Source: an uncultured Clostridia bacterium (GTDB lineage: Bacteria > Bacillota > Clostridia > TANB77 > CAG-508). Taken from it: 64,000 nt of DNA. Positions 9,764-49,737 of this stretch are shown piece after piece. Position 1 is the stretch's first letter. The number at the start of each line of letters is the position of its first letter. The stretch is taken from contig CAKPKQ010000005.1 of assembly GCA_934167305.1 (NCBI GenBank), forward strand, positions 952-64,951. Direction: 5' to 3'. The notes below the pieces were generated by a model that ran no database searches, had not been told where the DNA came from, and worked only from the letters and a program-made list of their open reading frames with translations. The position numbers and the translations under genes are program-made.

Positions 9764-10128
9764 GGGGATGTATTTGGTTTCGACAGTATCCTAGAAGTAT
9801 TGATAGCGAGTAGTGGATTCTCACTTGGCCACTTAAATAATGTGAGAAATTAAAAATAAACGCTGATAATAGAGAATTAGCATACGCTGCCTAATTAAAA
9901 GGCGCGTCATCTTACTTTATGTGCCCACGCTTAAAGATTAAGGTGTCAAATTAGTGGGAAACGAAATTATTTTTAGTTATGAAAATAATGGGTATTTTTA
10001 AATAACTACCTTTTTAATAAATTTGTTTGTTGTGTTATTATTTAGGGAATCTTTACAATAGACTGCACTCGGAGAAGTTGATATGGAAAGAATATTGGAC
10101 AGGAGTTCGACTCTCCTCATCTCCACCA
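9764..10128 (+). ncRNA. ssrA: tmRNA (SsrA)
   Basis: The 5' end reads GGGGATGTATTTGGTTTCGACAG. The acceptor stem pairs with the 3' end CATCTCCACCA, including G3:U. A T-arm aggagTTCGACTctcct is present. The tag reading frame at 9862-9894 (gct gat aat aga gaa tta gca tac gct gcc taa) encodes ADNRELAYAA*. Confidence 0.93.
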
Positions 10129-10194
10129 ATTTTTTATAAAAAATACTTGCACATTATTTAGTTTTGTGCTAATATAATAAAGTATTAAATTTTT

Positions 10195-10269
10195 AGGGGT
10201 ATAGTGTTAATGGTAGCACATCGGTCTCCAAAACCGCTTGTGAGGGTTCGAGTCCTTCTACCCCTGCCA
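10195..10269 (+). tRNA. tRNA-Trp (anticodon CCA), CCA encoded
   Basis: Cloverleaf: AGGGGTA/TACCCCT acceptor stem, anticodon loop CTCCAAA, T-arm GAGGG-TTCGAGT-CCTTC. Close to the B. subtilis tRNA-Trp pattern. Confidence 0.9.
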
Positions 10270-10363: not shown

Positions 10364-10792
10364 ATGGAAAAATTAAAGAAGCTATTAAATAGAGAAGTTA
10401 TTTCTTATATTATTTTTGGAGTTTTAACTACAGTTGTTAACATTAGTGTTTCATATGTTTTAAAAGCATTTTTACATGTAGAAACAAATATTGCAAGTAC
10501 AATTGGTATAATTATTTGTATTTTATTTGCATATTTTACTAATCGTAAATGGGTTTTTGAATCACATGCAAATACAGCTAAAGAAAAATGGGCTGAATTT
10601 TTTAAATTCATTTTAGGCAGAGCTTTTACAATGTTTGTTGAAATTGTAGGTGTATTCTTATTAAATGATGTATTTCATGCATTTTACAACTTTGGAGATA
10701 ACACAGGCTTTTTAATTAATAAATGTGTTATTACTGTAATTGTTATTATTCTAAACTTCTTTATCAGCAAGTTTTTTGCTTTTAAAAAATAA
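10364..10792 (+). CDS. GtrA family membrane protein
   Basis: 142 aa with four TM segments. The N-terminus (ISYIIFGVLTTVVN) and the NRKWVF motif are typical of GtrA-like proteins. Confidence 0.8.
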   Translation: MEKLKKLLNREVISYIIFGVLTTVVNISVSYVLKAFLHVETNIASTIGIIICILFAYFTNRKWVFESHANTAKEKWAEFFKFILGRAFTMFVEIVGVFLLNDVFHAFYNFGDNTGFLINKCVITVIVIILNFFISKFFAFKK

Positions 10793-19404: not shown

Positions 19405-20595
19405 TTACATAACTTTGGCTTTTACGTCTCCATCTTGCATTTTAATAGAAATTTCGTCTTCTTTATTTAGTTGATTTTTACTTTTTATAATTTCTCCATT
19501 TTTCGTAATTATTCCATAGCCTCTAGTTAAAGTTTTTAATGGACTTAATGAATCCAATTTTAAAATTACATTTTGTGCTTTTGCTTTTTCTTGTAGAATC
19601 TTATTATTTATACTGTGTTCCATTGATTTTACTTTAATATCAACTAACATTAGCTTTTCATTTATTTGTTGTAAAGCTCCTGTAAATGCTTTTCTTGACA
19701 TACATTTTTCATATTGTAATTTCATTAATTGCACTTTTCTAATCAATGCTTGCTCATATCTTTTTTGAAAAACTTTAAGTTTTTGTTCTACTTCTTTTAT
19801 ATCTGCCACTGCAAGTTCTGCAGCTGCTGATGGAGTTGGTGCTCTTAAATCTGCAACAAAATCTGCTATTGTAAAGTCTGTTTCGTGCCCCACAGCTGAA
19901 ATAACAGGTAATTCCGAGTTATATATTGCTCTTGCAACAATTTCTTCATTAAATGGCCATAAATCTTCTAATGAGCCTCCGCCTCTTGCAATAATAAGCA
20001 CATCCGCCAATTTATGCTTATTCATAAATTCAATACCTTCTGCTATTTTCTTTCCTGCTCCTTCGCCTTGCACTGGAACTGGAAATAGCCTAATATGTAC
20101 ATTCGGATTTCTTCTGGTAGACACATTTATAATATCTCTTATAACAGCTCCAGTATTTGAAGTTAACACTCCTATTGTTTCAGGCATTATAGGTATTTCT
20201 TTTTTATGTTTTTGGTCAAATAATCCTTCTTTTTCTAGTTTTGCCTTTAGTTCTTCATATGCTGCTCTTAAGTCTCCTATTTTTCCAAGTTGTTTCATTG
20301 CTTTAGCATATAATTGATATGTTCCGTCTCTTTCAAATACAGATACACTTCCAAGTACCATTACTTTCATACCATCTTGAGGTACAAAATCTAAATGTGT
20401 TGTATATGTTTTAAACATTATTGATTTTATTAAAGATTTTTCATCCTTTAATGTAAAATACATATGGCCTGTATAGTGATTTTTAAAGTTTGAAATCTCT
20501 CCCTCTACTAAAACATTAGCAAAGAATTCATCATTCTCAAACTTTTCTTTTACATATTTATTTAGTTCACTTACACTTATGGGATTATATGTCAT
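19405..20595 (-). CDS. xseA: Exodeoxyribonuclease VII large subunit
   Basis: 396 aa with OB fold and catalytic region (GVLTSNTGAVIRD, ARGGGSLEDLWPFN, SAVGHETD). Confidence 0.95.
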   Translation of the reverse strand: MTYNPISVSELNKYVKEKFENDEFFANVLVEGEISNFKNHYTGHMYFTLKDEKSLIKSIMFKTYTTHLDFVPQDGMKVMVLGSVSVFERDGTYQLYAKAMKQLGKIGDLRAAYEELKAKLEKEGLFDQKHKKEIPIMPETIGVLTSNTGAVIRDIINVSTRRNPNVHIRLFPVPVQGEGAGKKIAEGIEFMNKHKLADVLIIARGGGSLEDLWPFNEEIVARAIYNSELPVISAVGHETDFTIADFVADLRAPTPSAAAELAVADIKEVEQKLKVFQKRYEQALIRKVQLMKLQYEKCMSRKAFTGALQQINEKLMLVDIKVKSMEHSINNKILQEKAKAQNVILKLDSLSPLKTLTRGYGIITKNGEIIKSKNQLNKEDEISIKMQDGDVKAKVM

Positions 20596-25785: not shown

Positions 25786-27702
25786 TTATTTGTATTCTTC
25801 TACTTCTTTCTTTATTTTTAATATAAAGTCATTTAGTCCCATTACTCCAATATCACCATCTGATCTAGAACGAACTCCTACAGCATTTGCTTCTACTTCT
25901 TTATCTCCTATAATTAACATATATGGAATTTTTTGAAGTTGTGCTTCTCTAATTTTATAACCAATTTTTTCTTGTCTTTCATCAATTTCTGCACGAATTC
26001 CATTGTTGTCTAGTTCTTCTAAAACTTTTTCTGCATATTCTTTATGCGCGTCAGCTATTGGTAATATTTTTACTTGTACTGGTGATAACCATGTTGGAAA
26101 TGCACCTGCATAATGTTCTGTTAAAATACCAATAAATCTTTCAAATGAACCAAATAATGCTCTATGTAGCATAATTGGTGTTTTCTTTTCTCCATCTGAA
26201 TCAATGTATGATAAATTAAATCTTAATGGTAATTGGAAGTCAACTTGTACTGTTCCCATTTGCCATTCTCTTCCTAAACAGTCCTTCATTTTAATATCAA
26301 TTTTTGGACCATAGAAAGCTCCATCACCTTCATTTACACGATAATTGTCTTTACCACATATTTCGTCTAATACATCTTTTAAGTCCGCTTCTGCTTTGTT
26401 CCATAAATTGATGTCTCCCATATAATCTTCTGGTCTGGTAGATAATGTTAGTATAAAGTCTAATCCAAATATGTTATATAGTTTTTTAGCAATTTCAAGA
26501 ATATTTTTAATCTCTTCTTTAATTTGTGATTCCATAACATAATTGTGTGAATCATCTTGTCTAAACATTCTTACACGGAATAAACCGTTTAATTGTCCAG
26601 ATTTTTCATTACGATGTATAATATCTATATCACTAAATCTTAAAGGCAAGTCCTTGTAACTTCTTAATTTGCTTTGATAAATTTTAATAGAGTTTGGACA
26701 GTTCATTGGTTTTAAAGCTTGTTCTTTTCCATCACTATCTATTAAAACAAACATATCATCTTTGTAATGATCCCAATGTCCTGATGTTTTCCATAAACTA
26801 CTGCTGTTTAATTGTGGACCAGAGAATTCTTGATATCCTCTCTTTTTATGTTCTTTTCTCCAAAGGTCTATAAGTATATTCATCATTGTGAAGCCTTTAG
26901 GCATCCAATATGCCATACCTGGTGCTGTTTCATCAAAGAAAAATAAATCTAATTCTTTTCCTAATTTACGATGATCTCTTTTTTTAGCTTCTTCTAACAT
27001 ATGTAAATGTTCTTCTAACATGCTAGCTTTAGGAAATGAAATACCATAAATTCTTTGAAGAGTTTGTTTTGTTTCGTCCCCTCTCCAATATGAAGCTGAT
27101 GAATGTAATAATTTGAATGCTTTTACTGAGCCTGTACTCATAATATGTGGTCCAGCACATAATTCTTTAAATTCACCTTGATCATAAAAGCTAATTTCTT
27201 CACCTTCTGGTAGTTCTTCAATTAATTCTACTTTATATGGTTCTTTTCTATCTTTCATTAACTTAATAGCTTCTTCTCTTGGAAGAGTATATCTTGTGAT
27301 TGGTAAATCTTCTTTAACAATCTTTTTCATTTCTTCTTCAATTTTAGCTAAATCTTCTTCTGTGAATGGTTTTTCCACGTCAAAATCATAATAAAAACCA
27401 TTATCAATAGATGGACCAATTGTTAATTTTACATTATCTCCATATAGTCTTTTTATAGCTTGTGCCATAATGTGAGATGTTGTATGCCAATATGCCTTTT
27501 TACCATCTAAATCATCAAAAGTTAAAATCTCTAATTTACAATCTTTTTCAATTAAAGTACGTAAATCTTTTACCTCTCCATCAATCTTTCCCGCCATAGC
27601 ATTTCTTGCTAAGCCTTCACTTATTTTTTTTGCAATTTCTAAAATAGAAGAACCTACATTAACCTCTATTTTAGAACCATCTTTTAATTCTACTTTTACC
27701 AT
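25786..27702 (-). CDS. thrS: Threonine--tRNA ligase
   Basis: 638 aa with TGS, editing and class II catalytic domains (HRDHRKLG, FRVRMFRQDDSH, HRALFGSFERF). Confidence 0.97.
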   Translation of the reverse strand: MVKVELKDGSKIEVNVGSSILEIAKKISEGLARNAMAGKIDGEVKDLRTLIEKDCKLEILTFDDLDGKKAYWHTTSHIMAQAIKRLYGDNVKLTIGPSIDNGFYYDFDVEKPFTEEDLAKIEEEMKKIVKEDLPITRYTLPREEAIKLMKDRKEPYKVELIEELPEGEEISFYDQGEFKELCAGPHIMSTGSVKAFKLLHSSASYWRGDETKQTLQRIYGISFPKASMLEEHLHMLEEAKKRDHRKLGKELDLFFFDETAPGMAYWMPKGFTMMNILIDLWRKEHKKRGYQEFSGPQLNSSSLWKTSGHWDHYKDDMFVLIDSDGKEQALKPMNCPNSIKIYQSKLRSYKDLPLRFSDIDIIHRNEKSGQLNGLFRVRMFRQDDSHNYVMESQIKEEIKNILEIAKKLYNIFGLDFILTLSTRPEDYMGDINLWNKAEADLKDVLDEICGKDNYRVNEGDGAFYGPKIDIKMKDCLGREWQMGTVQVDFQLPLRFNLSYIDSDGEKKTPIMLHRALFGSFERFIGILTEHYAGAFPTWLSPVQVKILPIADAHKEYAEKVLEELDNNGIRAEIDERQEKIGYKIREAQLQKIPYMLIIGDKEVEANAVGVRSRSDGDIGVMGLNDFILKIKKEVEEYK

Positions 27703-27787: not shown

Positions 27788-28013
27788 AGCACTCCTAAAG
27801 TATTGCTACTTTAGGAGTGCTTTTACACGGTTCCATCCTATTTTTAACTTAATTACTCTTTAACGCAGATGTACGCCTAGCTTTTTACTAGGAACTAATG
27901 AGGTAGTTTTTCAAATCTGTTTATTTAAGTTAGCTTTCAGCCGTTGACCAACTCTCTCTTTTAACAACCTTGATTTTACTTTGTCTCATTCTTGTCTTTA
28001 TTTTTTCAAACTA
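27788..28013 (-). promoter_or_regulatory. T-box riboswitch leader of thrS (Thr specifier)
   Basis: AGAGAG/GGT..GCTGAAAG stem I elements are present. The specifier region is candidate ACU/ACC at about 27902-27907. The T-box motif AGGATGGAACCGTG lies at 27826-27839. The terminator stem aagcactcctaaagt/actttaggagtgctt lies at 27788-27823. Confidence 0.85.
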
Positions 28014-42133: not shown

Positions 42134-42913
42134 TTATTCTTCTGTTCTTTGAGCACCTTTTTCTTCACACCATTTTCCAAATTCTTCCCAATCTAAGAAC
42201 TCAGAACCAGGAACCTTATATGGATCATTATTGTTTAAATATTGATCAATGGTGTATTCCTTAAATATTTCCGCATTAAAAGCATTAAGGTATTTCTCTC
42301 TGTTATATGTTTTTCTTGCATTGGTGTCATAAATTTTATTTTTTCTGCATAATGCTGCATGTCCACATTTTTCTTCCATACATGGTTTAATGCTCATCCA
42401 AATAATTTTAATTTCTGGATCTTTTAAAGCATTTGCTATCAAATATGTCGTGTTATAACATAAATGATTGCAACCTTCTGAACGAATAAATGAATATAAT
42501 TCTTTATCATTTTTTCTTATCGTCATCCAGTTTTTGAATGTTATTACTCCAAAATTGATAAGCTGGATATTTCTGATTTTCCGCTTTATACTTGCTCTAA
42601 TATCTTCCACGTCTTTTTTTTGAGCAATTACCATAATCACAATATAAAAGACGTCTATTGCTATAGCTGTTATAATACTAAAGCAAACAATAAGAGTTAT
42701 TCCCCAGCCTTTAAATGCATTGTTTAATACCATGCTAATTATGCAAAGTACCAATGCTATCAAAGTTGGAATGGTTGAGGTTGTAAGCCGATATGTTAAC
42801 CATGTGGCAAAATACTTGTGCTTGAATAAATATAAGTCCTCTTTTTTCTCTTCTTTTGAGAGTTCTTGAAATTCTTTAATTTCTCTCAAAGCAATTCTTT
42901 CGTAAAAAAACAT
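42134..42913 (-). CDS. Membrane protein with a Cys/His-containing C-terminal domain, hypothetical
   Basis: Three or four TM segments, followed by EGCNHLCY...CGHAALC...YDTN. A thiol-hydrolase-like fold is only a guess. Confidence 0.5.
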   Translation of the reverse strand: MFFYERIALREIKEFQELSKEEKKEDLYLFKHKYFATWLTYRLTTSTIPTLIALVLCIISMVLNNAFKGWGITLIVCFSIITAIAIDVFYIVIMVIAQKKDVEDIRASIKRKIRNIQLINFGVITFKNWMTIRKNDKELYSFIRSEGCNHLCYNTTYLIANALKDPEIKIIWMSIKPCMEEKCGHAALCRKNKIYDTNARKTYNREKYLNAFNAEIFKEYTIDQYLNNNDPYKVPGSEFLDWEEFGKWCEEKGAQRTEE

Positions 42914-43390
42914 TTTATTTCCTCCATTTTCTAAGATGTTATAATTTATTTGCTTGGGAAGGAAATGTTTTTCACCACTTGGTAAAAAACATTTGTATTT
43001 CTAATGGGATATTGCCCATAGTATATATATTATAGCACATTTTAGTAACTTTTACCAGTAAAATTTGTATTTGATAATTATTAATATACATCAAAAAAGA
43101 ATAGCTTTAGCTATTCTTTTGGAATGACATAACTAATCTCTTATATTTATATATGCTCAAAATATGTTAATTATATTATATGTTAATAAAAAATTATTTT
43201 TATCTAAATATATAAGTATTTAAGCTTTTAATAGTATCAAATTTCAAGCAGTAAGCATTTGTTCGTTCTTCAGTTACAAACTTAAAAATGTAGTTAATAT
43301 TTTTAGATGCTGATGCTCAAAGTTTGAGCATCAGCAGTAGATGAGAATATTATTGGTTTAATTTTATAAGTTGCCTAGATAAAAAGATTC

Positions 43391-43819
43391 TTAAATTCGT
43401 TCAGTTTGGTTTATTCCTCCTGCAATGTATGTTATCCCAGAAGAAAAAAATTCTACAACATAGCTATTTCCACTGCACGAATTAATAACCTTTTTGTTAA
43501 TCTTTTCTCCAACTTTTAGATTATATGAAGCTCTCAATACTTGAACACTTCCAACATTTTCATATACAGAAATTGTACAATCTTCACCAGCCACAGGAGA
43601 AAGGATCAGCCAAAGTCCCCATCCCTTGTTAGGAGTTACAGTCACAGTTTTATATGAGTTAATTCTTGTATTTTCAAACTGTGCTAGAATCCGTTGGTCA
43701 GTGCTCGTAACACTTTCTTCTTGTTCTAATGTTTCTGGAACTTCTACTGCATGAACAGATACCGCCATTACAGAAAGCACCAAGATAATTGTGAAAACCA
43801 TAGATGTAATTTTTTTCAT
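43391..43819 (-). CDS. Small secreted hypothetical protein
   Basis: Signal peptide MKKITSMVFTIILVLSVMAVSVHA followed by a beta-rich 118-aa domain. Confidence 0.5.
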   Translation of the reverse strand: MKKITSMVFTIILVLSVMAVSVHAVEVPETLEQEESVTSTDQRILAQFENTRINSYKTVTVTPNKGWGLWLILSPVAGEDCTISVYENVGSVQVLRASYNLKVGEKINKKVINSCSGNSYVVEFFSSGITYIAGGINQTERI

Positions 43820-43976
43820 TTGAATTTTTCTCCTTAATAGCTTCTAAATATCCTCATCTACTATTAACACTATCAAGAATTGATAGTATTAATTAGTTTA
43901 TAAATATTTATTATATATATTTTGCATTTTTACATTTGTCAATACTTTCAATTTGCATAAACTATAAAAAAATAAA

Positions 43977-44618
43977 TTATTCCTCTACATACCCCGTTAC
44001 ATCTGGTTTAGTAACATCGTTTTCTTGTACATCACCAATTTCTTTATAGTAATCTTGAATTACTGATTTTCCTTCATGTTGACTTATCATCCTTAATAGC
44101 TTTCCTGTATTAGCTTCAATAATATACTCCCATGAAGATTGTTGTACCAAATAACAACTTTTGTCTCTAAATTTAATTTTCTCTATTTTAGAATATATAG
44201 CAGAATTAAATGAATATAAAATTGTCTTATCGGTATTTTGTAATGCCATTTTTCCGATTGAATTAACATTTTTTTTAGTTTTGTTTTTTCCATCATTACT
44301 TAGCACAAAACTTTCATTTTCATCTTCATATTCAATCAAATTACTTAATGATCTATTTTCGTTTTTAGAATAAGAGCTAGTATATCTTATTTTTTTATTT
44401 TCCTTTATATATTCTTCTCCATATATTATTGTATCTTCTGTAACACTAATTTCTGTTAAATGATAATTATAAGTTTTATTATTTATTTCATTTATCTCAG
44501 CTTTCTTTACTAAATCATTAAGTATAATGTATTTTCGAGTAATATTTACAGCAAATGCAATTACTATAATTAATAATACTACACCTAAAATTTTAAATGT
44601 TTTTTTCTCATTTTTCAT
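43977..44618 (-). CDS. Membrane-anchored hypothetical protein
   Basis: N-terminal TM (FKILGVVLLIIVIAFAV) plus an ectodomain. Confidence 0.5.
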   Translation of the reverse strand: MKNEKKTFKILGVVLLIIVIAFAVNITRKYIILNDLVKKAEINEINNKTYNYHLTEISVTEDTIIYGEEYIKENKKIRYTSSYSKNENRSLSNLIEYEDENESFVLSNDGKNKTKKNVNSIGKMALQNTDKTILYSFNSAIYSKIEKIKFRDKSCYLVQQSSWEYIIEANTGKLLRMISQHEGKSVIQDYYKEIGDVQENDVTKPDVTGYVEE

Positions 44619-44723
44619 ATATCTTTTTCTCCTTACTTATACGACGTTTTTTTATTTATTTTATTACAAATTTTGTAATAGTATCATAAACGTCCATTTT
44701 TTATAAATTAATTTTTATATCTA

Positions 44724-45278
44724 TTATTGTTTATAGAAAAAATTAACTTCGTTAATAGTTGGTATTACTTTAGGTAAAAACTCTTTAATAATTGGTCCTA
44801 AAATATCAACAAATTCTTTTCTTTCGAAAATAATTTTTAAGCCCATTGGTAAACCATTGTCTGAAATATGGTACATTATCGCAACAATATTTATAACCAA
44901 AGTTGCTCTAAAAAGTCCTACATTGTCAACTGATAAACTTTCAAATAATCCATTTTCAGTTTCTAATTTTCTATCATATATACTTTGAAGTCCAAAATAA
45001 GTTATAATAAGGTTGTTTAAATCTAATTCTCTGTGTGAATCTGGAATAGATATATATGATTTAAGGCTATGCTTTAAGATTGTTGCATTATTTTGAGCTC
45101 CAACTATTTCTTGTATTGCCTCTTTTTCTGTCGCATCAAAAAATTCTTTAAATTGAGGATTAGAGTTTTTGCAAGAATACCAATCTTCCATAATATTTAT
45201 TGCACTATTATTTTTTATATAATTACTTAACTCCTCAATTAATTGCTCATTAACAGGTGTAGTTACATTGTCATTCAA
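44724..45278 (-). CDS. Hypothetical cytoplasmic protein
   Basis: 184-aa ORF, 6 nt downstream of 45285..46115, so likely an operon with it. Confidence 0.5.
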   Translation of the reverse strand: MNDNVTTPVNEQLIEELSNYIKNNSAINIMEDWYSCKNSNPQFKEFFDATEKEAIQEIVGAQNNATILKHSLKSYISIPDSHRELDLNNLIITYFGLQSIYDRKLETENGLFESLSVDNVGLFRATLVINIVAIMYHISDNGLPMGLKIIFERKEFVDILGPIIKEFLPKVIPTINEVNFFYKQ

Positions 45279-45284
45279 ATCTCT

Positions 45285-46115
45285 TTATTTTATACTTAAT
45301 TCAAAATTATATCCTCTATCCATAATAGGTCTGCTTAAACATAATTTGCTATTTTTTGTTAATGTAAATATATTTTCAGATCGATTCAAATTGATTTTTC
45401 CATCTTTAACTTCACACATAGGGTTAGTTTTAATTATAATAAAGTTTTCTCCAATATTGACAATCTTAAAAGTAAAAAGAATTGTTTCTTCATGAATTTC
45501 TTTTCCATTTTTTAAATATGAAATGCCCATTTTGGATACTACATTTTCTATATTTGTTTTAATATCATAAGTTTTTATTTTTCCTGTCTTTTTGTCTAAA
45601 ACTTCTATTATATCGTATTGTGTAATTTTTTCTGCCTTATTTTCTGTAGTTGAAATATCACTATTTTCTAATGTTCTAACGCTTGAAATGTTCATTTTTT
45701 CAATATTAGTTATTAATATTCTACTTACCTCTTTTAATATTGATTTTGTAATATTTTCAATACGACTAACAATATTAATTAAATCATTATCTCTAAAGTT
45801 ATTACAAAATTCTTTAATATTTTTATTCACCATTTCTTGGTCTGTTAATAATGAATCTATATCATTTATTGTTAACTCTTTTTTGTTATAAAAATTATTT
45901 AAAACTATTGCCTTAAAAACATCACATGTTACTATTTTCCAAAATGGATCAGTTTCTAATGATTTATCCTCATCTAAAATTTCTTTAAGCATTCGATCTA
46001 AATATTTTAATGTTTCTTTTAAATCGTCATTTTCATAATTTAGATATGCCATTTTTAAGTCTCTTTCTAAATCTTCTAATTTCATTTTATACACCCTACC
46101 TTTCTTGCTTTTCAT
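45285..46115 (-). CDS. Hypothetical cytoplasmic protein
   Basis: 276-aa ORF (alternative ATG at 46085). Helical N-half and beta-rich C-half. Confidence 0.5.
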   Translation of the reverse strand: MKSKKGRVYKMKLEDLERDLKMAYLNYENDDLKETLKYLDRMLKEILDEDKSLETDPFWKIVTCDVFKAIVLNNFYNKKELTINDIDSLLTDQEMVNKNIKEFCNNFRDNDLINIVSRIENITKSILKEVSRILITNIEKMNISSVRTLENSDISTTENKAEKITQYDIIEVLDKKTGKIKTYDIKTNIENVVSKMGISYLKNGKEIHEETILFTFKIVNIGENFIIIKTNPMCEVKDGKINLNRSENIFTLTKNSKLCLSRPIMDRGYNFELSIK

Positions 46116-46262
46116 TCTATACTATAACTGATCTTTTTGCAACAGTAGGTAAAAGATAGTCAATAAAAAATCACTTTAAAAGAATTAAAATAAAAAAGAA
46201 TTAGTATATTTTCCTAATTAATAAACTAATTCTTTGCAGAATATTTGTTCGTAATGTTATGC

Positions 46263-46291
46263 TTTTAAAAACAAGTTGAAAAACTTGTTTT
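46263..46291 (-). terminator. Terminator of the tRNA operon
   Basis: The minus strand directly after the CCA end reads aaaaacaagtt-tttc-aacttgttttt. Confidence 0.7.
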
Positions 46292-46599
46292 TGGTGGGCA
46301 GAGATGGATTCGAACCATCGTACTCGTACGAGAACAGATTTCTTACTACTATAGTTTTCACTACCATTTAAATGTTTGTAGTCTGGACTTTCTCTTTATC
46401 TTGATAAGATACCAGGTATAAAGTCTCTACACTCGAAATTTCTTTCTAGCTCGGGATTATCATCAGCTTTATCTGTTAAGACTTCCCCGAATTAGCCCGG
46501 TTTTCATCATACAATTACTTGTATGAGCTGCAATTTCTGATTTTTTGATTTAAATCAAAGCCTACAGTCTGCCGCCTTTAGCCACTCGGCCATCTGCCC
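46292..46599 (-). tRNA. tRNA-Tyr (GTA) interrupted by a 222-nt intron in the anticodon loop. Exons are 46564-46599 and 46292-46341.
   Basis: Acceptor stem GGGCAGA/TCTGCCC plus A-CCA. D-arm GCCGAGTGGCTAAAGGC. Anticodon stem GCAGA/TCTGT. The spliced loop is CTGTAAA. There is a long variable arm and a T-arm GATGG-TTCGAAT-CCATC. The spliced length is 86 nt. Confidence 0.85.
46342..46563 (-). ncRNA. Group I intron (IC3-like) in tRNA-Tyr
   Basis: The 5' exon ends in U and the intron ends in G. Helices found (intron numbering): P2 CATACAA-GTAA-TTGTATG; P3 ACCGGG (63-68)/CCTGGT (148-153); P4 TTCGGG (73-78)/CCCGAG (109-114); P6 CTAGAAA-GAAA-TTTCGAG; P8 ATCTT-ATC-AAGAT. GTAGAGACT with GACT/AGTC forms P7. 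Confidence 0.75.
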
Positions 46600-46638: not shown

Positions 46639-46715
46639 TGGTCCGCCATCTAGGATTCGAACCTAGGACCCACCGGTTATGAGCCGGTTGCTCTGACCAA
46701 CTGAGCTAATGGCGG
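46639..46715 (-). tRNA. tRNA with CAT anticodon (elongator Met or Ile2/lysidine type), CCA encoded
   Basis: CCGCCAT/ATGGCGG acceptor stem, TAGCTCAGTTGGTCAGAGC D-arm, ACCGG-CTCATAA-CCGGT anticodon arm, CTAGG-TTCGAAT-CCTAG T-arm. Confidence 0.85.
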
Positions 46716-46836
46716 ATTTGTAATGCAAGTCTAAGTATAAATCATTTTTTTAAAATTGTCAAGTGATTTATTAATTTATTTATAATTTTTTTCATATATA
46801 AAGTGGTCAGATTACTCCAACCACTTTAATATAACA

Positions 46837-47865: not shown

Positions 47866-49737
47866 TTAATTGTTTTTCTTTATTTCTGCATAACGTTTTA
47901 TTTTCATTGTAGTAGTTTTTTCAAATTCATCATGTTTAATTTCTAGGTTTTTAATTGCCTTGTATGATGTTAATTTTTTATTAACTTCTTTAATTTTAGG
48001 CCAAATTATTTCTCTTATTTGTTCATCAGTTAAATCTTTTCCATGTTCTTTTTCTAATTTTTCCAAATTAGGTATTACTTTTACAGAAATAATAAGTTCT
48101 TTATTGTTTTTATTTTCGCTATCTTCTTTTCCATATACCATGCATTCTTTTATTTCTGGAACTTGTGATAATAGTAGTTCTATTTCTTCCGGATAAATAT
48201 TTTTTCCATTTTGAGTTACAATTACGTTTTTGCTTCTTCCAGTTATGTATAAGAATCCATCTTTATCTAAATAGCCTATGTCTCCTGAATGAAACCATCT
48301 TTCTCCATTGATTTCTTCTATTACTTCTTTTGTTGCTTCTTCATCTTCATAATATCCAATCATTAATGTAGGACTTTTTATTAATACTTCTCCCTCACCA
48401 TTTTCATTCGGATCTTCAATACGTATTTCTCCTTTAGGAATTGCTTTTCCCGCAGACCCTACTTTTGTTTGATATTCTGGTGTTAGTGCGGCTATTGGTG
48501 CTGTTTCAGTTAGTCCATAACCTTGTAAAAATGTTATTCCTATATTTTCTACCCATTTACCAACTTTTGCATCTATTGGTGCCGCTGCTGATACTATAAT
48601 TCTTAGGTTTCCGCCTAAATTCTCGTGAATGTCAGAAAATACCTTTCTTTTAATATCTACTCCTACTGCTCTTAATGCATTTGTTACATGTATCATTGAC
48701 CCTACTAAACCATCTTTATTTGCTTTTTTTATGCTTGCATTTATTTTTTTATACAAATTTTCTATTAAAAGTGGAACTGATATCATTACTGTAGGTTTTG
48801 TTTCTAACAAGTTTGGTACAATATGTTTTAAACCTTGGCATACAGCTATTGAGCATCCCCACGCCATTGGAAGTAAAAAACCTATTGTTGATTCATAAGT
48901 ATGGTGTAAAGGTAAAACTGAAAAGAATCTGTCTTCTGGATATACTTTTGCATATGCAGTTGCTGCATTTATATTTTCAGCTAAATTTCTACTTGTTAGC
49001 ATTACTCCTTTTGAATTTGATGTAGTTCCTGAAGTAAATAATAATATTTTAAATTCATCTGGATCAGTATTTACTTTTGCAAAATAATCGTCACCTGTAT
49101 TGACTATTTTTTTGCCCTCATTTATTAAATACTTCATACCAATTGATTTACCGTTTTTTTCTTCTTCTGAGTACATTTTTATAAAATATTTAACCTTTGG
49201 ACATTTTTCCATTATTCTTTTTACGGAATCTGCTTTTTTTTCTGAATATATAATAACATCTGCTCTTGATCTTTGCACAACATTTTCAAGTTCATTGTCT
49301 GGTAGTTCTTTATCTGTTGGTATTGCAATTGAATCTATGCAAAGTGAAGTAACATATGATACATACCAAGCATATGTTGTTTCACTTAATATTAAAATTC
49401 TTGGTTTATTATTTAGTTTTAGTATTTTATTTAATGCTGTTCCAAATCCAACTACGTCTTCTCCAAATTGTTTGTATGTAATTTCTTCAAATTTTCCTTT
49501 TGGATCAAATTTTTCTAGTATAAACTCTTTATTTGCATATTTATTTATTGAATATTCAAATACTTGCTTTATATCAGAATAGTTTGTAGCTATATACTCT
49601 TTTTTATCTTTTTTCTTTTCTTTTGCTTTTTCTATTTCTTCACTATTCATATCAATTTCTTCAATTTCAGATATGTCTTTCATCTTGAATTTTGGAAATT
49701 TGAAATTTGGAACTTTAAAATCTCTTAATCCTCTCAT
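47866..49737 (-). CDS. Long-chain acyl-CoA synthetase (AMP-binding family)
   Basis: LLFTSGTTSNSKGVMLT AMP-binding motif, plus GYGLTET, SGDIGYLDKDGFLYITGRSK and KIKR. Confidence 0.88.
   Translation of the reverse strand: MRGLRDFKVPNFKFPKFKMKDISEIEEIDMNSEEIEKAKEKKKDKKEYIATNYSDIKQVFEYSINKYANKEFILEKFDPKGKFEEITYKQFGEDVVGFGTALNKILKLNNKPRILILSETTYAWYVSYVTSLCIDSIAIPTDKELPDNELENVVQRSRADVIIYSEKKADSVKRIMEKCPKVKYFIKMYSEEEKNGKSIGMKYLINEGKKIVNTGDDYFAKVNTDPDEFKILLFTSGTTSNSKGVMLTSRNLAENINAATAYAKVYPEDRFFSVLPLHHTYESTIGFLLPMAWGCSIAVCQGLKHIVPNLLETKPTVMISVPLLIENLYKKINASIKKANKDGLVGSMIHVTNALRAVGVDIKRKVFSDIHENLGGNLRIIVSAAAPIDAKVGKWVENIGITFLQGYGLTETAPIAALTPEYQTKVGSAGKAIPKGEIRIEDPNENGEGEVLIKSPTLMIGYYEDEEATKEVIEEINGERWFHSGDIGYLDKDGFLYITGRSKNVIVTQNGKNIYPEEIELLLSQVPEIKECMVYGKEDSENKNNKELIISVKVIPNLEKLEKEHGKDLTDEQIREIIWPKIKEVNKKLTSYKAIKNLEIKHDEFEKTTTMKIKRYAEIKKNN

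Follow-up and report, generated by a model that had tools for sequence, protein, structure and literature searches.

Reviews place group I introns of bacterial tRNA genes in tRNA-Leu, tRNA-fMet, tRNA-Ile and tRNA-Arg only, in cyanobacteria and in α- and β-proteobacteria. A purely computational survey of 80,413 bacterial genomes (K.P. Williams, bioRxiv 2020, doi 10.1101/2020.01.27.920355) reports an increase of the split-tRNA types from 4 to 21, with 5,292 genes, and comes with a seed alignment whose members are stated to belong all to subgroup IC3. Besides this preprint, no description of a tRNA-Tyr group I intron was found in the literature. Here we describe a tRNA-Tyr(GUA) gene from an uncultured Clostridia bacterium, contained in a 64-kb stretch of DNA (contig CAKPKQ010000005.1; the whole stretch analysed is called the window hereafter), which is split between positions 35 and 36 by a group I intron of the IC3 type devoid of an open reading frame (ORF). 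The initial annotation of this DNA knew of no group I intron in a bacterial tRNA-Tyr or in a Clostridia tRNA and asked for a check of the literature; this has to be corrected, since the released seed file holds one tRNA-Tyr entry, Mba143.Tyr.4Ug, as well as a tmRNA entry, Cbo40.tmRNA. Mba143.Tyr.4Ug concerns the same tRNA and the same site, with the same U-1 and ωG as the window intron, which splits its tRNA after nucleotide 4 of the anticodon loop, the position that defines the Tyr.4Ug class. The intron class is already catalogued, computationally and in a preprint only, and the novelty is lower than had been assumed. New here are the near-fixation of the intron in gut bacteria resembling Clostridium sp. 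CAG:508, the identification of tRNA-Thr(UGU) introns as its closest relatives outside the Tyr set among the matches listed, and the presence of an endonuclease gene beside the tRNA in sister strains.

The sequence view comprised the 64-kb window of this genome and at most 14 kb for each relative. The gene lies on the minus strand of the window and consists of three parts:

46564..46599, minus strand: tRNA-Tyr(GUA) exon 1, 36 nt (GGGCAGATGGCCGAGTGGCTAAAGGCGGCAGACTGT), ending in ...GCAGACTGT; identical in the intron-less locus L004 and in the sister lineages
46342..46563, minus strand: ORF-less group I intron (IC3/tRNA type), 222 nt, AGGCTTTG...AGTAGTAAG (AGGC...GTAAG); supported by RF00028, ARAGORN, covariation and the gap in L004
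46292..46341, minus strand: tRNA-Tyr exon 2, 50 nt (AAATCTGTTCTCGTACGAGTACGATGGTTCGAATCCATCTCTGCCCACCA), running from AAATCTGT to ...CCACCA; from direct reading, ARAGORN and L004

Exon 1 ends with C32 U33 G34 U35, where U35 (46564) is the U-1 of the 5' splice site, and exon 2 provides A36 A37 A38, the 3' strand of the anticodon stem, the long variable arm, the T arm, the 3' strand of the acceptor stem, A73 and an encoded CCA. The predicted ligated junction thus falls between U35 and A36 (...GGCAGACUGU|AAAUCUGUUCUC...). ARAGORN recognized the joined exons as an 86-nt tRNA-Tyr(gta) with a long variable arm, a G1-C72 pair, A73, CCA and standard D and T arms, so that the spliced cloverleaf carries, together with its GUA anticodon, the features of a bacterial type II tRNA-Tyr. 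Run on the unspliced DNA with the -i option, the same program returned tRNA-Tyr (gta) i(37,222). The boundaries are also given by a natural uninterrupted allele: in L004, a same-species scaffold from a human-gut metagenome, both exons are identical to those of the window and the gap corresponds to exactly the predicted 222 nt. This comparison leaves a one-base A/A slide only, which is settled because group I introns follow a U at the 5' splice site and end with a G. The splice coordinates, the exon lengths, the complete type II tRNA-Tyr obtained on removal of the insert and the two diagnostic residues (U35 at 46564, G at 46342) proposed in the initial annotation were therefore borne out, as was the lack of an ORF in the insert, whose longest stop-free stretch in any frame is 37 codons. 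The split locus is invisible to default ARAGORN and to an Rfam scan of the window at gathering threshold, and default ARAGORN found no second tRNA-Tyr gene within the 64 kb.

The group I nature of the insert had been proposed from the letters alone. In a sensitive scan of a 551-nt region, the Rfam model RF00028 (Group I catalytic intron) aligned over its full length to 46361-46567 (minus strand) with 39.6 bits and E = 1.1e-8. The following elements of the fold were assigned, all on the minus strand:

46528..46567, minus strand: P1, exon CUGU plus intron AG (46567-46562) paired with the internal guide UUGCAG (46533-46528)
46507..46526, minus strand: P2 hairpin, UCAUACAA-GUAA-UUGUAUGA, with the GNRA loop L2; both sides changed in 6 of 8 pairs
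46411..46501, minus strand: P3, ACCGGG (46501-46496) with CCUGGU (46416-46411), around the P4-P5-P6 domain and the P7 5' strand
46435..46493, minus strand: J3/4-P4-P5-P5a-P6 domain, AAUUCGGGG...UCCCGAG, with P4 TTCGGG/CCCGAG and P6 GAAA-GAAA-UUUC
46422-46432, minus strand: J6/7-P7, GUGUAGA-GACU, which matches the Azoarcus entry of the seed file except for the last base
46398-46410, minus strand: P8 hairpin, ATCTT/AAGAT; 3 of 5 pairs compensated
46386-46397, minus strand: J8/7-P7', AAAGAGAA-AGUC; the whole J6/7-to-P7' element spans 46386..46432
46342..46382, minus strand: P9 domain, with P9.0 ACUAC/GUAGU, P9a CAUU/AAUG and P9b GUAGU-GAAA-ACUAU, followed by UAAG up to ωG

All the helices already named (P2 with its GUAA cap, P3, P4, P6 with its GAAA cap, P7 and P8) were found in place. 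To these we add a P9 made of three helices, which reaches the terminal G at 46342, 19 nt past the end of the Rfam match; this last base is a G, as expected of ωG, and the boundary is set independently by L004. Both the RF00028 alignment and the explicit structure contain the group I core, P3-P4-P6 and P7-P3'-P8-P7', with the P3/P7 pseudoknot. In P1, written CUGUAG/UUGCAG, U35 forms a U·G wobble with intron G33 at the 5' splice site, a pairing common to all 8 Tyr introns. An extension of P1 (UUUGAUU/AAUCAGA, 46559-46553 with 46542-46536) changes from GAUU/AAUC to GGUU/AACC in three relatives (L026, L033 and L088). P7 (GACT/AGTC), which forms the pseudoknot with P3, is invariant and is the presumed guanosine-binding site.

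Covariation was examined in an alignment of 19 precursors, 8 Tyr and 11 Thr, with the full topology, P3/P7 pseudoknot included, written explicitly. Standard pairs filled 91.6% of the cells of this fold against 35-41% when the partners were slid by 1-3 columns, and 25 of the 53 pairs were changed on both sides. The covariation score was 0.352, as compared with 0.04-0.10 for the slid controls, and was reached by none of 500 shuffles. Compensatory changes support P2, P3 (97.4% of cells paired, 4 of 6 pairs compensated), P6 (4 of 4 pairs) and P8, and they extend to P9, where CUAC/GUAG becomes CCAC/GUGG and GUAGU/ACUAU becomes GCAAU/AUUGU. RNAalifold recovered P2, P3, P4, P5, P6, P8 and the three-helix P9, with 24 of its 47 pairs compensated. 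Folding of the single sequence gave the P1 extension, P2, P4-P5-P5a, P8, P9a and P9b (z = -2.1). The intron has 34% G+C, in a window of 28.5% G+C.

Some results count against a group I ribozyme at this locus. The score of 39.6 bits lies under the curated gathering score of 50, the match was lost in both scans of the whole window, the sensitive one included, and P4, invariant across the 19 sequences, and P7 never vary and so bring no covariation evidence. The loss in whole-window scans is presumably due to the Infernal filters, and at genome scale these filters and the gathering score both hide such introns. We regard the low score as a limit of the sensitivity of the model rather than as evidence against membership; Williams (2020) states that none of the Rfam seeds is bacterial and describes the use of 18-20 bits together with a split-tRNA call. 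Taken together, the split of tRNA-Tyr(GUA) by a group I intron is supported, because the reconstruction of the exons, the RF00028 alignment, the covariation and the intron-less allele at the same locus all point to it. The IC3/tRNA type is suggested by the match of core strings to IC3 seeds and by the insertion site: the intron is 222 nt long and ORF-less, lies at 35/36 of the anticodon loop, and has J3/4-P4 and J6/7-P7 strings like those of Azoarcus.

A survey of related genomes, already envisaged in the initial annotation, then gave 54 intron-plus loci and 1 intron-less locus in total. Five distinct places in public assemblies carry an acyl-CoA-synthetase-like neighbour protein identical to that of the window (47866-49737, minus strand) and were taken as the same species; 4 are intron-plus and 1, L004, is intron-less. 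All 30 sister-lineage loci have an intron, of 221 or 226 nt, as do at least 7 GTDB species among the matches listed and the 13 loci matching the pattern of a JGI metagenome scan anchored on the 3' end of tRNA-Met, with no intron-less case in any of these three samples. The host is an uncultured Clostridia lineage very common in the human gut, as judged by the names of homologues, their contig counts and the G+C content of the window: the 281-aa protein next to the locus has homologues under the names 'Clostridium sp. CAG:508' and 'Clostridiales bacterium', each on at least 1000 contigs, and the index lists the neighbour protein for thousands of assembly blocks. The Clostridia assignment made in the initial annotation is thus correct. 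Because metagenome assemblies supplied the window and most relatives, one might think of an assembly artefact, or of tRNA halves flanking an unrelated insert by chance. The same structure, however, recurs in dozens of assemblies made independently by several projects from various hosts, some of the contigs exceeding 1 Mb, which already refutes this idea, and the RF00028 E value (1e-8) and the strong covariation leave it a negligible probability.

Among the three closest lineages, the tRNA-Tyr exons do not differ and the intron is 95.5% identical, against about 83% for the flanking synthetase gene; the intron is more conserved than its flank, which would not be expected of an inactive insert. 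This bears on another possibility, that of a decayed intron which no longer splices, leaving a tRNA-Tyr pseudogene while tyrosine codons are read by another tRNA-Tyr encoded elsewhere. Such a gene could lie beyond the 64 kb in view, and the RF00028 score below the gathering threshold would suit a degenerate ribozyme. Yet the exons are perfectly conserved in three lineages, the helices are kept by compensatory changes in an intron that varies less than the flanking genes, every core element is intact, a near-consensus promoter is retained upstream, and 54 of 55 loci across species are intron-plus. We consider decay very unlikely.

The split gene is the second of two tRNA genes, an order common to every related locus, and the surrounding elements are the following:

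46734..46762, minus strand: sigma-70-type promoter TTGACA-17-TATACT, 11 of 12 consensus positions (a match to the consensus only), 19 nt upstream of tRNA-Met
46639..46715, minus strand: tRNA-Met(CAU), first gene of the operon, from default ARAGORN and RF00005 (71.5 bits)
46268..46291, minus strand: A/T-rich hairpin AAAACAAGUU-UUUC-AACUUGUUUU followed by U, from direct reading; conserved in sister loci

The promoter is the sole strong site in the 1-kb region. The tRNA-Met is not an initiator, because its position 1:72 is a paired C-G. The hairpin is likely to be the terminator of the operon; it was missed by the terminator scan because it has just 2 G-C pairs.

The whole is best explained by a functional tRNA-Met/tRNA-Tyr operon in which the tRNA-Tyr intron splices itself out, and we hold this with high confidence, the catalysis being what we infer. 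In the precursor, pairing of exon CUGU with the guide UUGCAG would set U35 in the U·G wobble. By the chemistry of the family, an exogenous guanosine bound at P7 would attack after U35, ωG (46342) would then occupy the guanosine site, and the freed 3'-OH of U35 would attack after ωG, joining U35 to A36 and releasing the intron. The anticodon stem (GCAGA/UCUGU) may help to bring the splice sites together, a role described in a report on the Anabaena pre-tRNA. The GNRA loops are expected to brace the fold, L2 (GUAA) probably on the plain P8 helix and L9b (GAAA) on P5. Reading and modification of the anticodon loop would be possible only after splicing. That the insertion splits the anticodon and precludes function before splicing, together with near-fixation and strong conservation in an abundant lineage, would also fit a retained function, namely splicing conditional on a protein or on growth conditions that regulates the supply of mature tRNA-Tyr instead of being neutral. 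Nevertheless, the intron is a minimal 222-nt core with no ligand-binding or additional domain, its conservation would follow just as well if an essential gene simply requires its ribozyme to stay active, and an intron-less strain exists; we give regulation little chance, and retain self-splicing in a functional operon.

The intron-less locus deserves attention in its own right. Over 11.5 kb, 151 positions distinguish L004 from the window; about 140 of them are concentrated in one tract lying roughly -1300 to -37 nt from the intron site, and the two are nearly identical elsewhere. This 1.27-kb tract (L004:5469-6738, window 47864-46601) is 98% identical to a sister species, with a protein identical to P0018, while its flanks are 99.95% of the window type and 83% identical to that sister species. 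On the basis of these alignments, L004 appears to be a window-type genome with an inter-species conversion tract, one end of which would lie within or just after the tRNA-Tyr gene; the crossover is not placed more finely because the exons are invariant across lineages. The donor was probably an unsampled intron-less relative, since all sampled members of the donor lineage are intron-plus. Two other views of L004 were considered. A merely hypervariable gene was ruled out by the 98% match to the sister species, which indicates import. A chimeric assembly is, as a matter of argument, probably not the cause, both putative parents being intron-plus and the precise loss of the intron being unexplained by chimerism.

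To place the intron among its relatives, one genome per GTDB species was scanned with a core motif (AATTCGGGGAA-N(35-65)-GTGTAGAGACT), which gave at least 120 matches. Of the 120 listed, 105 lie inside intron-split tRNA genes: 38 Leu(taa), 16 Thr(tgt), 14 Met(cat), 7 Tyr(gta), 6 Phe(gaa), 6 Leu(caa), 5 Arg(cct) and 13 others. The seven Tyr cases listed all come from metagenome-assembled genomes (MAGs) of uncultured gut Clostridia (human, goat, sheep and chicken) and have tRNA-Met upstream; their introns, of 220-229 nt, occupy the same site and are 85-94% identical to that of the window. The next closest among the matches listed are the tRNA-Thr(UGU) introns of uncultured Clostridia and Bacilli MAGs (L011, L015, L018, L045, L048, L050, L060, L063, L089, L120 and L122), with 71-77% identity. 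These introns, of the Thr.5Ug type, measure 218-238 nt, sit at 36/37 and belong to genes of Lys-Glu-Thr clusters.

Among the matches listed (L006-L125), the motif marks split tRNAs of at least 12 isotypes, including Leu, Thr, Met, Tyr, Phe, Arg, Asp, Ile, Asn, Ser and Ala, although ARAGORN may have misassigned some isotypes where the anticodon position is odd. The hosts listed comprise Patescibacteria/Saccharibacteria, Acidobacteria, Nitrospirae, Chloroflexi, Bacteroidota, Actinomycetota, α- and γ-proteobacteria and cyanobacteria. A BLAST search of the locus against phage and plasmid collections gave tRNA-level matches and one 94-nt match to a pelagiphage intron, and no close relative. In Pelagibacter phage HTVC120P (MH598807.1, about 19599-19781; L156:1386-1568), the major capsid gene is annotated as two coding sequences (gp29 and gp30) separated by a gap. 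The gap contains a group I intron, which RF00028 scores at 48.6 bits (E = 3e-11, slightly below gathering) and whose 3' half is 78% identical to the window intron.

We then looked at the region downstream of the split gene. In the same-species locus L001 and in many sister loci, an ORF of 126-128 aa lies 68-85 nt downstream of tRNA-Tyr on the same strand (for example L001:10452-10838, L127:4463-4849, L139:4481-4861, L061:2055-2432 on the minus strand and L088:5002-5382). Its product matches Pfam PF11645 (PDDEXK_5) at 66 bits, and 2OST (E = 3.5e-4) was the single match in the PDB. In Synechocystis, the group I intron of the tRNA-fMet gene encodes I-Ssp6803I, which cuts the intron-less tRNA gene. 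PF11645/2ost corresponds to the 'ssp6803i' family of homing endonucleases (PMC3424549), and I-Ssp6803I is a tetramer with a 23-bp pseudo-palindromic target and close homologues mainly in cyanobacteria (PMC3384342). At least 14 loci from 5 or more lineages have the gene in full length, among them the GTDB species of L061 and L088 at 68% amino-acid identity; it thus stands beside the intron-containing gene in L001 and in at least 13 sister loci. Many other loci keep a 31-aa remnant with an internal deletion, and the remaining ones have no such gene. Alignment of loci with the gene, with the remnant and without either places an empty site in the window:

46226..46236, minus strand: endonuclease empty site or scar, junction ...AUAUUCUGC | AAAGAAUUAG

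At the scar junction (...ATATTCTGC|AAAGAATTAG..., 46236/46235), no more than ~10 nt of the ORF are left, and these equal the final codons and the stop of the 128-aa ORF that sister strains have at this position.

A profile built from these proteins was searched against the six-frame ORFs of the 120 listed GTDB loci. It gave 8 matches, each beside or inside an intron-split tRNA gene: downstream of a Lewinella tRNA-Leu(CAA), directly 5' of the P4 core in four long introns, and in one cyanobacterial tRNA-Met intron among others. By these matches, the PF11645 family seems to be tied to tRNA introns well outside cyanobacteria. PF11645-like ORFs were located at L027:4674-5159, L070:2261-2707, L085:5033-5587 (minus strand), L107:2466-3179, L123:517-957 and L059:6380-6880, some apparently inside long tRNA introns uncalled by ARAGORN and others just downstream of split tRNA genes; their hosts are Rhodothermales, Patescibacteria, Saprospiraceae, Chloroflexia, Lewinella and a cyanobacterium.

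Collaborative homing, in which an endonuclease acts in trans for an ORF-less intron, has been described for two phage systems (PMC3984707). The states of the endonuclease gene fit collaborative homing followed by the decay expected once all alleles are occupied. We tentatively propose, with confidence well short of even, that the intron and the free-standing endonuclease form a collaborative-homing element of gut Clostridia. Its target would be the pseudo-palindromic anticodon stem-loop DNA of an uninterrupted tRNA-Tyr gene, with the intron conferring immunity, and splicing would be essential in what would be the sole tRNA-Tyr gene of reduced genomes. The loci would show this element in successive phases of the endonuclease cycle, with the gene intact, internally deleted or, as in the window, reduced to a scar. 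The intron would have jumped from tRNA-Thr(UGU) to tRNA-Tyr(GUA), founding an independent Tyr lineage, a step for which one base of the guide has to change and the L2/P8 tetraloop-receptor pair has to be exchanged. In the main reading given above, inheritance is now almost vertical, the intron being close to fixed in lineages resembling Clostridium sp. CAG:508, and the original spread was probably aided in trans by the I-Ssp6803I-family gene downstream of the tRNA. Three observations speak against such a role of the endonuclease: by tblastn its gene is absent from the window, where the scar only is found; all sampled loci but one being intron-plus, there is no statistical contrast for an association between endonuclease and intron; and the intron-less allele of L004 sits in a foreign tract, unlike the product of a homing event.

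The intron could also be a true group I ribozyme that is purely vertical, frozen baggage devoid of any active means of mobility, the PF11645 gene being an unrelated selfish or defence nuclease that lands at the 3' flank of the tRNA. The 3' end of tRNA-Tyr is indeed a general hot spot of integration, with differing islands right after CCA in L001 and L126; the endonucleases of different lineages diverge as their hosts do (85-90% amino-acid identity), and the Clostridia tRNA-Thr introns have no such neighbour. On the other hand, no member of the family has been characterised except one, which is the homing endonuclease of a group I intron in a tRNA anticodon loop, the 8 profile matches in the 120 listed loci all fall beside or inside intron-split tRNA genes of several phyla, and the intact, internally deleted and scarred copies resemble the classic decay cycle of a homing endonuclease after fixation. 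We regard this purely vertical history as a serious possibility, not far from an even chance.

Several observations were made around the locus. The islands of L001 (9446-10450) and L126 (4395 onward) start right after CCA with ATGACGT(A/T)TCTG; that of L126 encodes a 641-aa serine recombinase, and in L001 the tRNA 3' end and the terminator are duplicated at 10380-10443. The window itself has another gene set downstream of tRNA-Tyr, five ORFs (42134-46115) with no family match. Elsewhere in the window, a T-box leader (27810-28001, minus strand; 70.9 bits, E = 2e-13, below the gathering score of 93) precedes a 638-aa thrS (25786-27702, minus strand). It is an ordinary thrS leader missed by the curated threshold, and this position ruled it out as a tyrS leader. 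At 9764-10269 (plus strand), a standard one-piece tmRNA (tag ADNRELAYAA, 151.6 bits), followed by tRNA-Trp(CCA), has no intron, unlike the Clostridium botulinum tmRNA of the Williams seed file.

tRNAscan-SE is not designed for group I introns (PMC8450103). As default ARAGORN and Rfam miss the intron too, genomes of this abundant gut lineage will appear to have no tRNA-Tyr, which can be misread as incompleteness or recoding. If these bacteria have no other tRNA-Tyr gene, they could read no tyrosine codon without a ribozyme reaction; the lineage would then offer for study a minimal, A/T-rich IC3 ribozyme that occurs naturally in a gut anaerobe, and possibly a lineage-specific vulnerability. The locus is a well-sampled natural series for intron fixation and endonuclease decay, and adds an apparent tetraloop-receptor swap between sister introns and one precisely intron-less recombinant. 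By the motif scan, group I introns of anticodon loops extend to far more isotypes and phyla than the reviews state, which lends independent support to what the 2020 preprint reports on this point. Collaborative homing, if true, would be the first example of trans homing on a bacterial chromosome and the first for a tRNA, and would give PF11645 proteins a first functional context outside cyanobacterial introns.

Finally, we compared the locus with the known systems. With the tRNA-Ile(CAU) intron of Azoarcus and the classical Leu(UAA), Arg(CCU) and fMet introns, the window intron shares a small ORF-less form (~200-250 nt), a position after U in the anticodon loop and GNRA loops on P2 and P9, and the AATTCGGGGAA...GTGTAGAGACT motif is likewise present in Leu(taa), Arg(cct) and Met(cat) introns of many phyla. 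The likeness to Azoarcus, proposed in the initial annotation, is real in the published seed alignment (Aol6.Ile2.5Ug), where J3/4-P4 reads AAAUUCGGCGAAA against AAUUCGGGGAAG here and J6/7-P7 reads GGUGUAGAGACUA against GUGUAGAGACUU here. The host tRNA, however, is another one, and the site is 35/36 here, as compared with 34/35 in Leu and 36/37 in Ile, Arg and Thr; identity amounts to 54-65%; the window intron is A/T-rich (34% G+C); by eye, its P8 has no 11-nt GAAA receptor, and L2 is GUAA or GUGA, not GAAA; and the host phylum lies outside the cyanobacteria and proteobacteria of the reviews.

The Mba143.Tyr.4Ug entry of the seed file has the same CUGU/AAA site (35/36), a P1 of CUGUA(A/G) with UUGCAG (CUGUAA/UUGCAG in the seed) and a similar P2. 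Only P1 and P2 are alike: overall identity is 61%, no closer than to introns of other tRNAs (54-65%), the core reads GAUAACGGUGAAA...GUAGAGACUA in the seed and CUAAUUCGGGGAAG...GUGUAGAGACUU in the window, and the P9 of the seed is single and GAAA-capped whereas that of the window has three helices. Its name code presumably hints at a candidate-phylum host, which is our guess. From these alignments, the window intron may either belong to a separate lineage that reached this site by convergence or be related to the seed with much divergence.

The Thr(UGU) introns share with the Tyr introns identical core strings, a three-helix P9 with a GAAA loop, the kind of host, the 5' exon end UGU and the 3' exon start AA. 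They are inserted one nucleotide further 3' (36/37, CUUGU|AA), with the guide UUGCAC instead of UUGCAG, and no PF11645 gene lies near them. As assessed by eye, they combine an L2 GAAA with a canonical 11-nt receptor (CCUAAG...UAUGG) in P8, whereas in the Tyr introns an L2 of GUAA, GUGA or GCAA goes with a plain P8 helix in which CU:AG occurs; both kinds have GAAA as L9b throughout. Under tetraloop-receptor rules, this difference looks like a coordinated swap of a tertiary contact.

As in the known systems of this kind, an ORF-less intron is accompanied in sister loci by a gene of a homing-endonuclease family directly beside the interrupted gene, this gene shows presence, decay and absence after fixation of the intron, and PF11645/2OST is the family for which cleavage of a tRNA gene at the intron site of its anticodon loop is known. 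Here, in contrast to the phage systems, the pair resides on a bacterial chromosome; unlike intron-encoded endonucleases the gene is free-standing, and whereas the described range of PF11645 is mainly cyanobacterial, it is found here in Clostridia.

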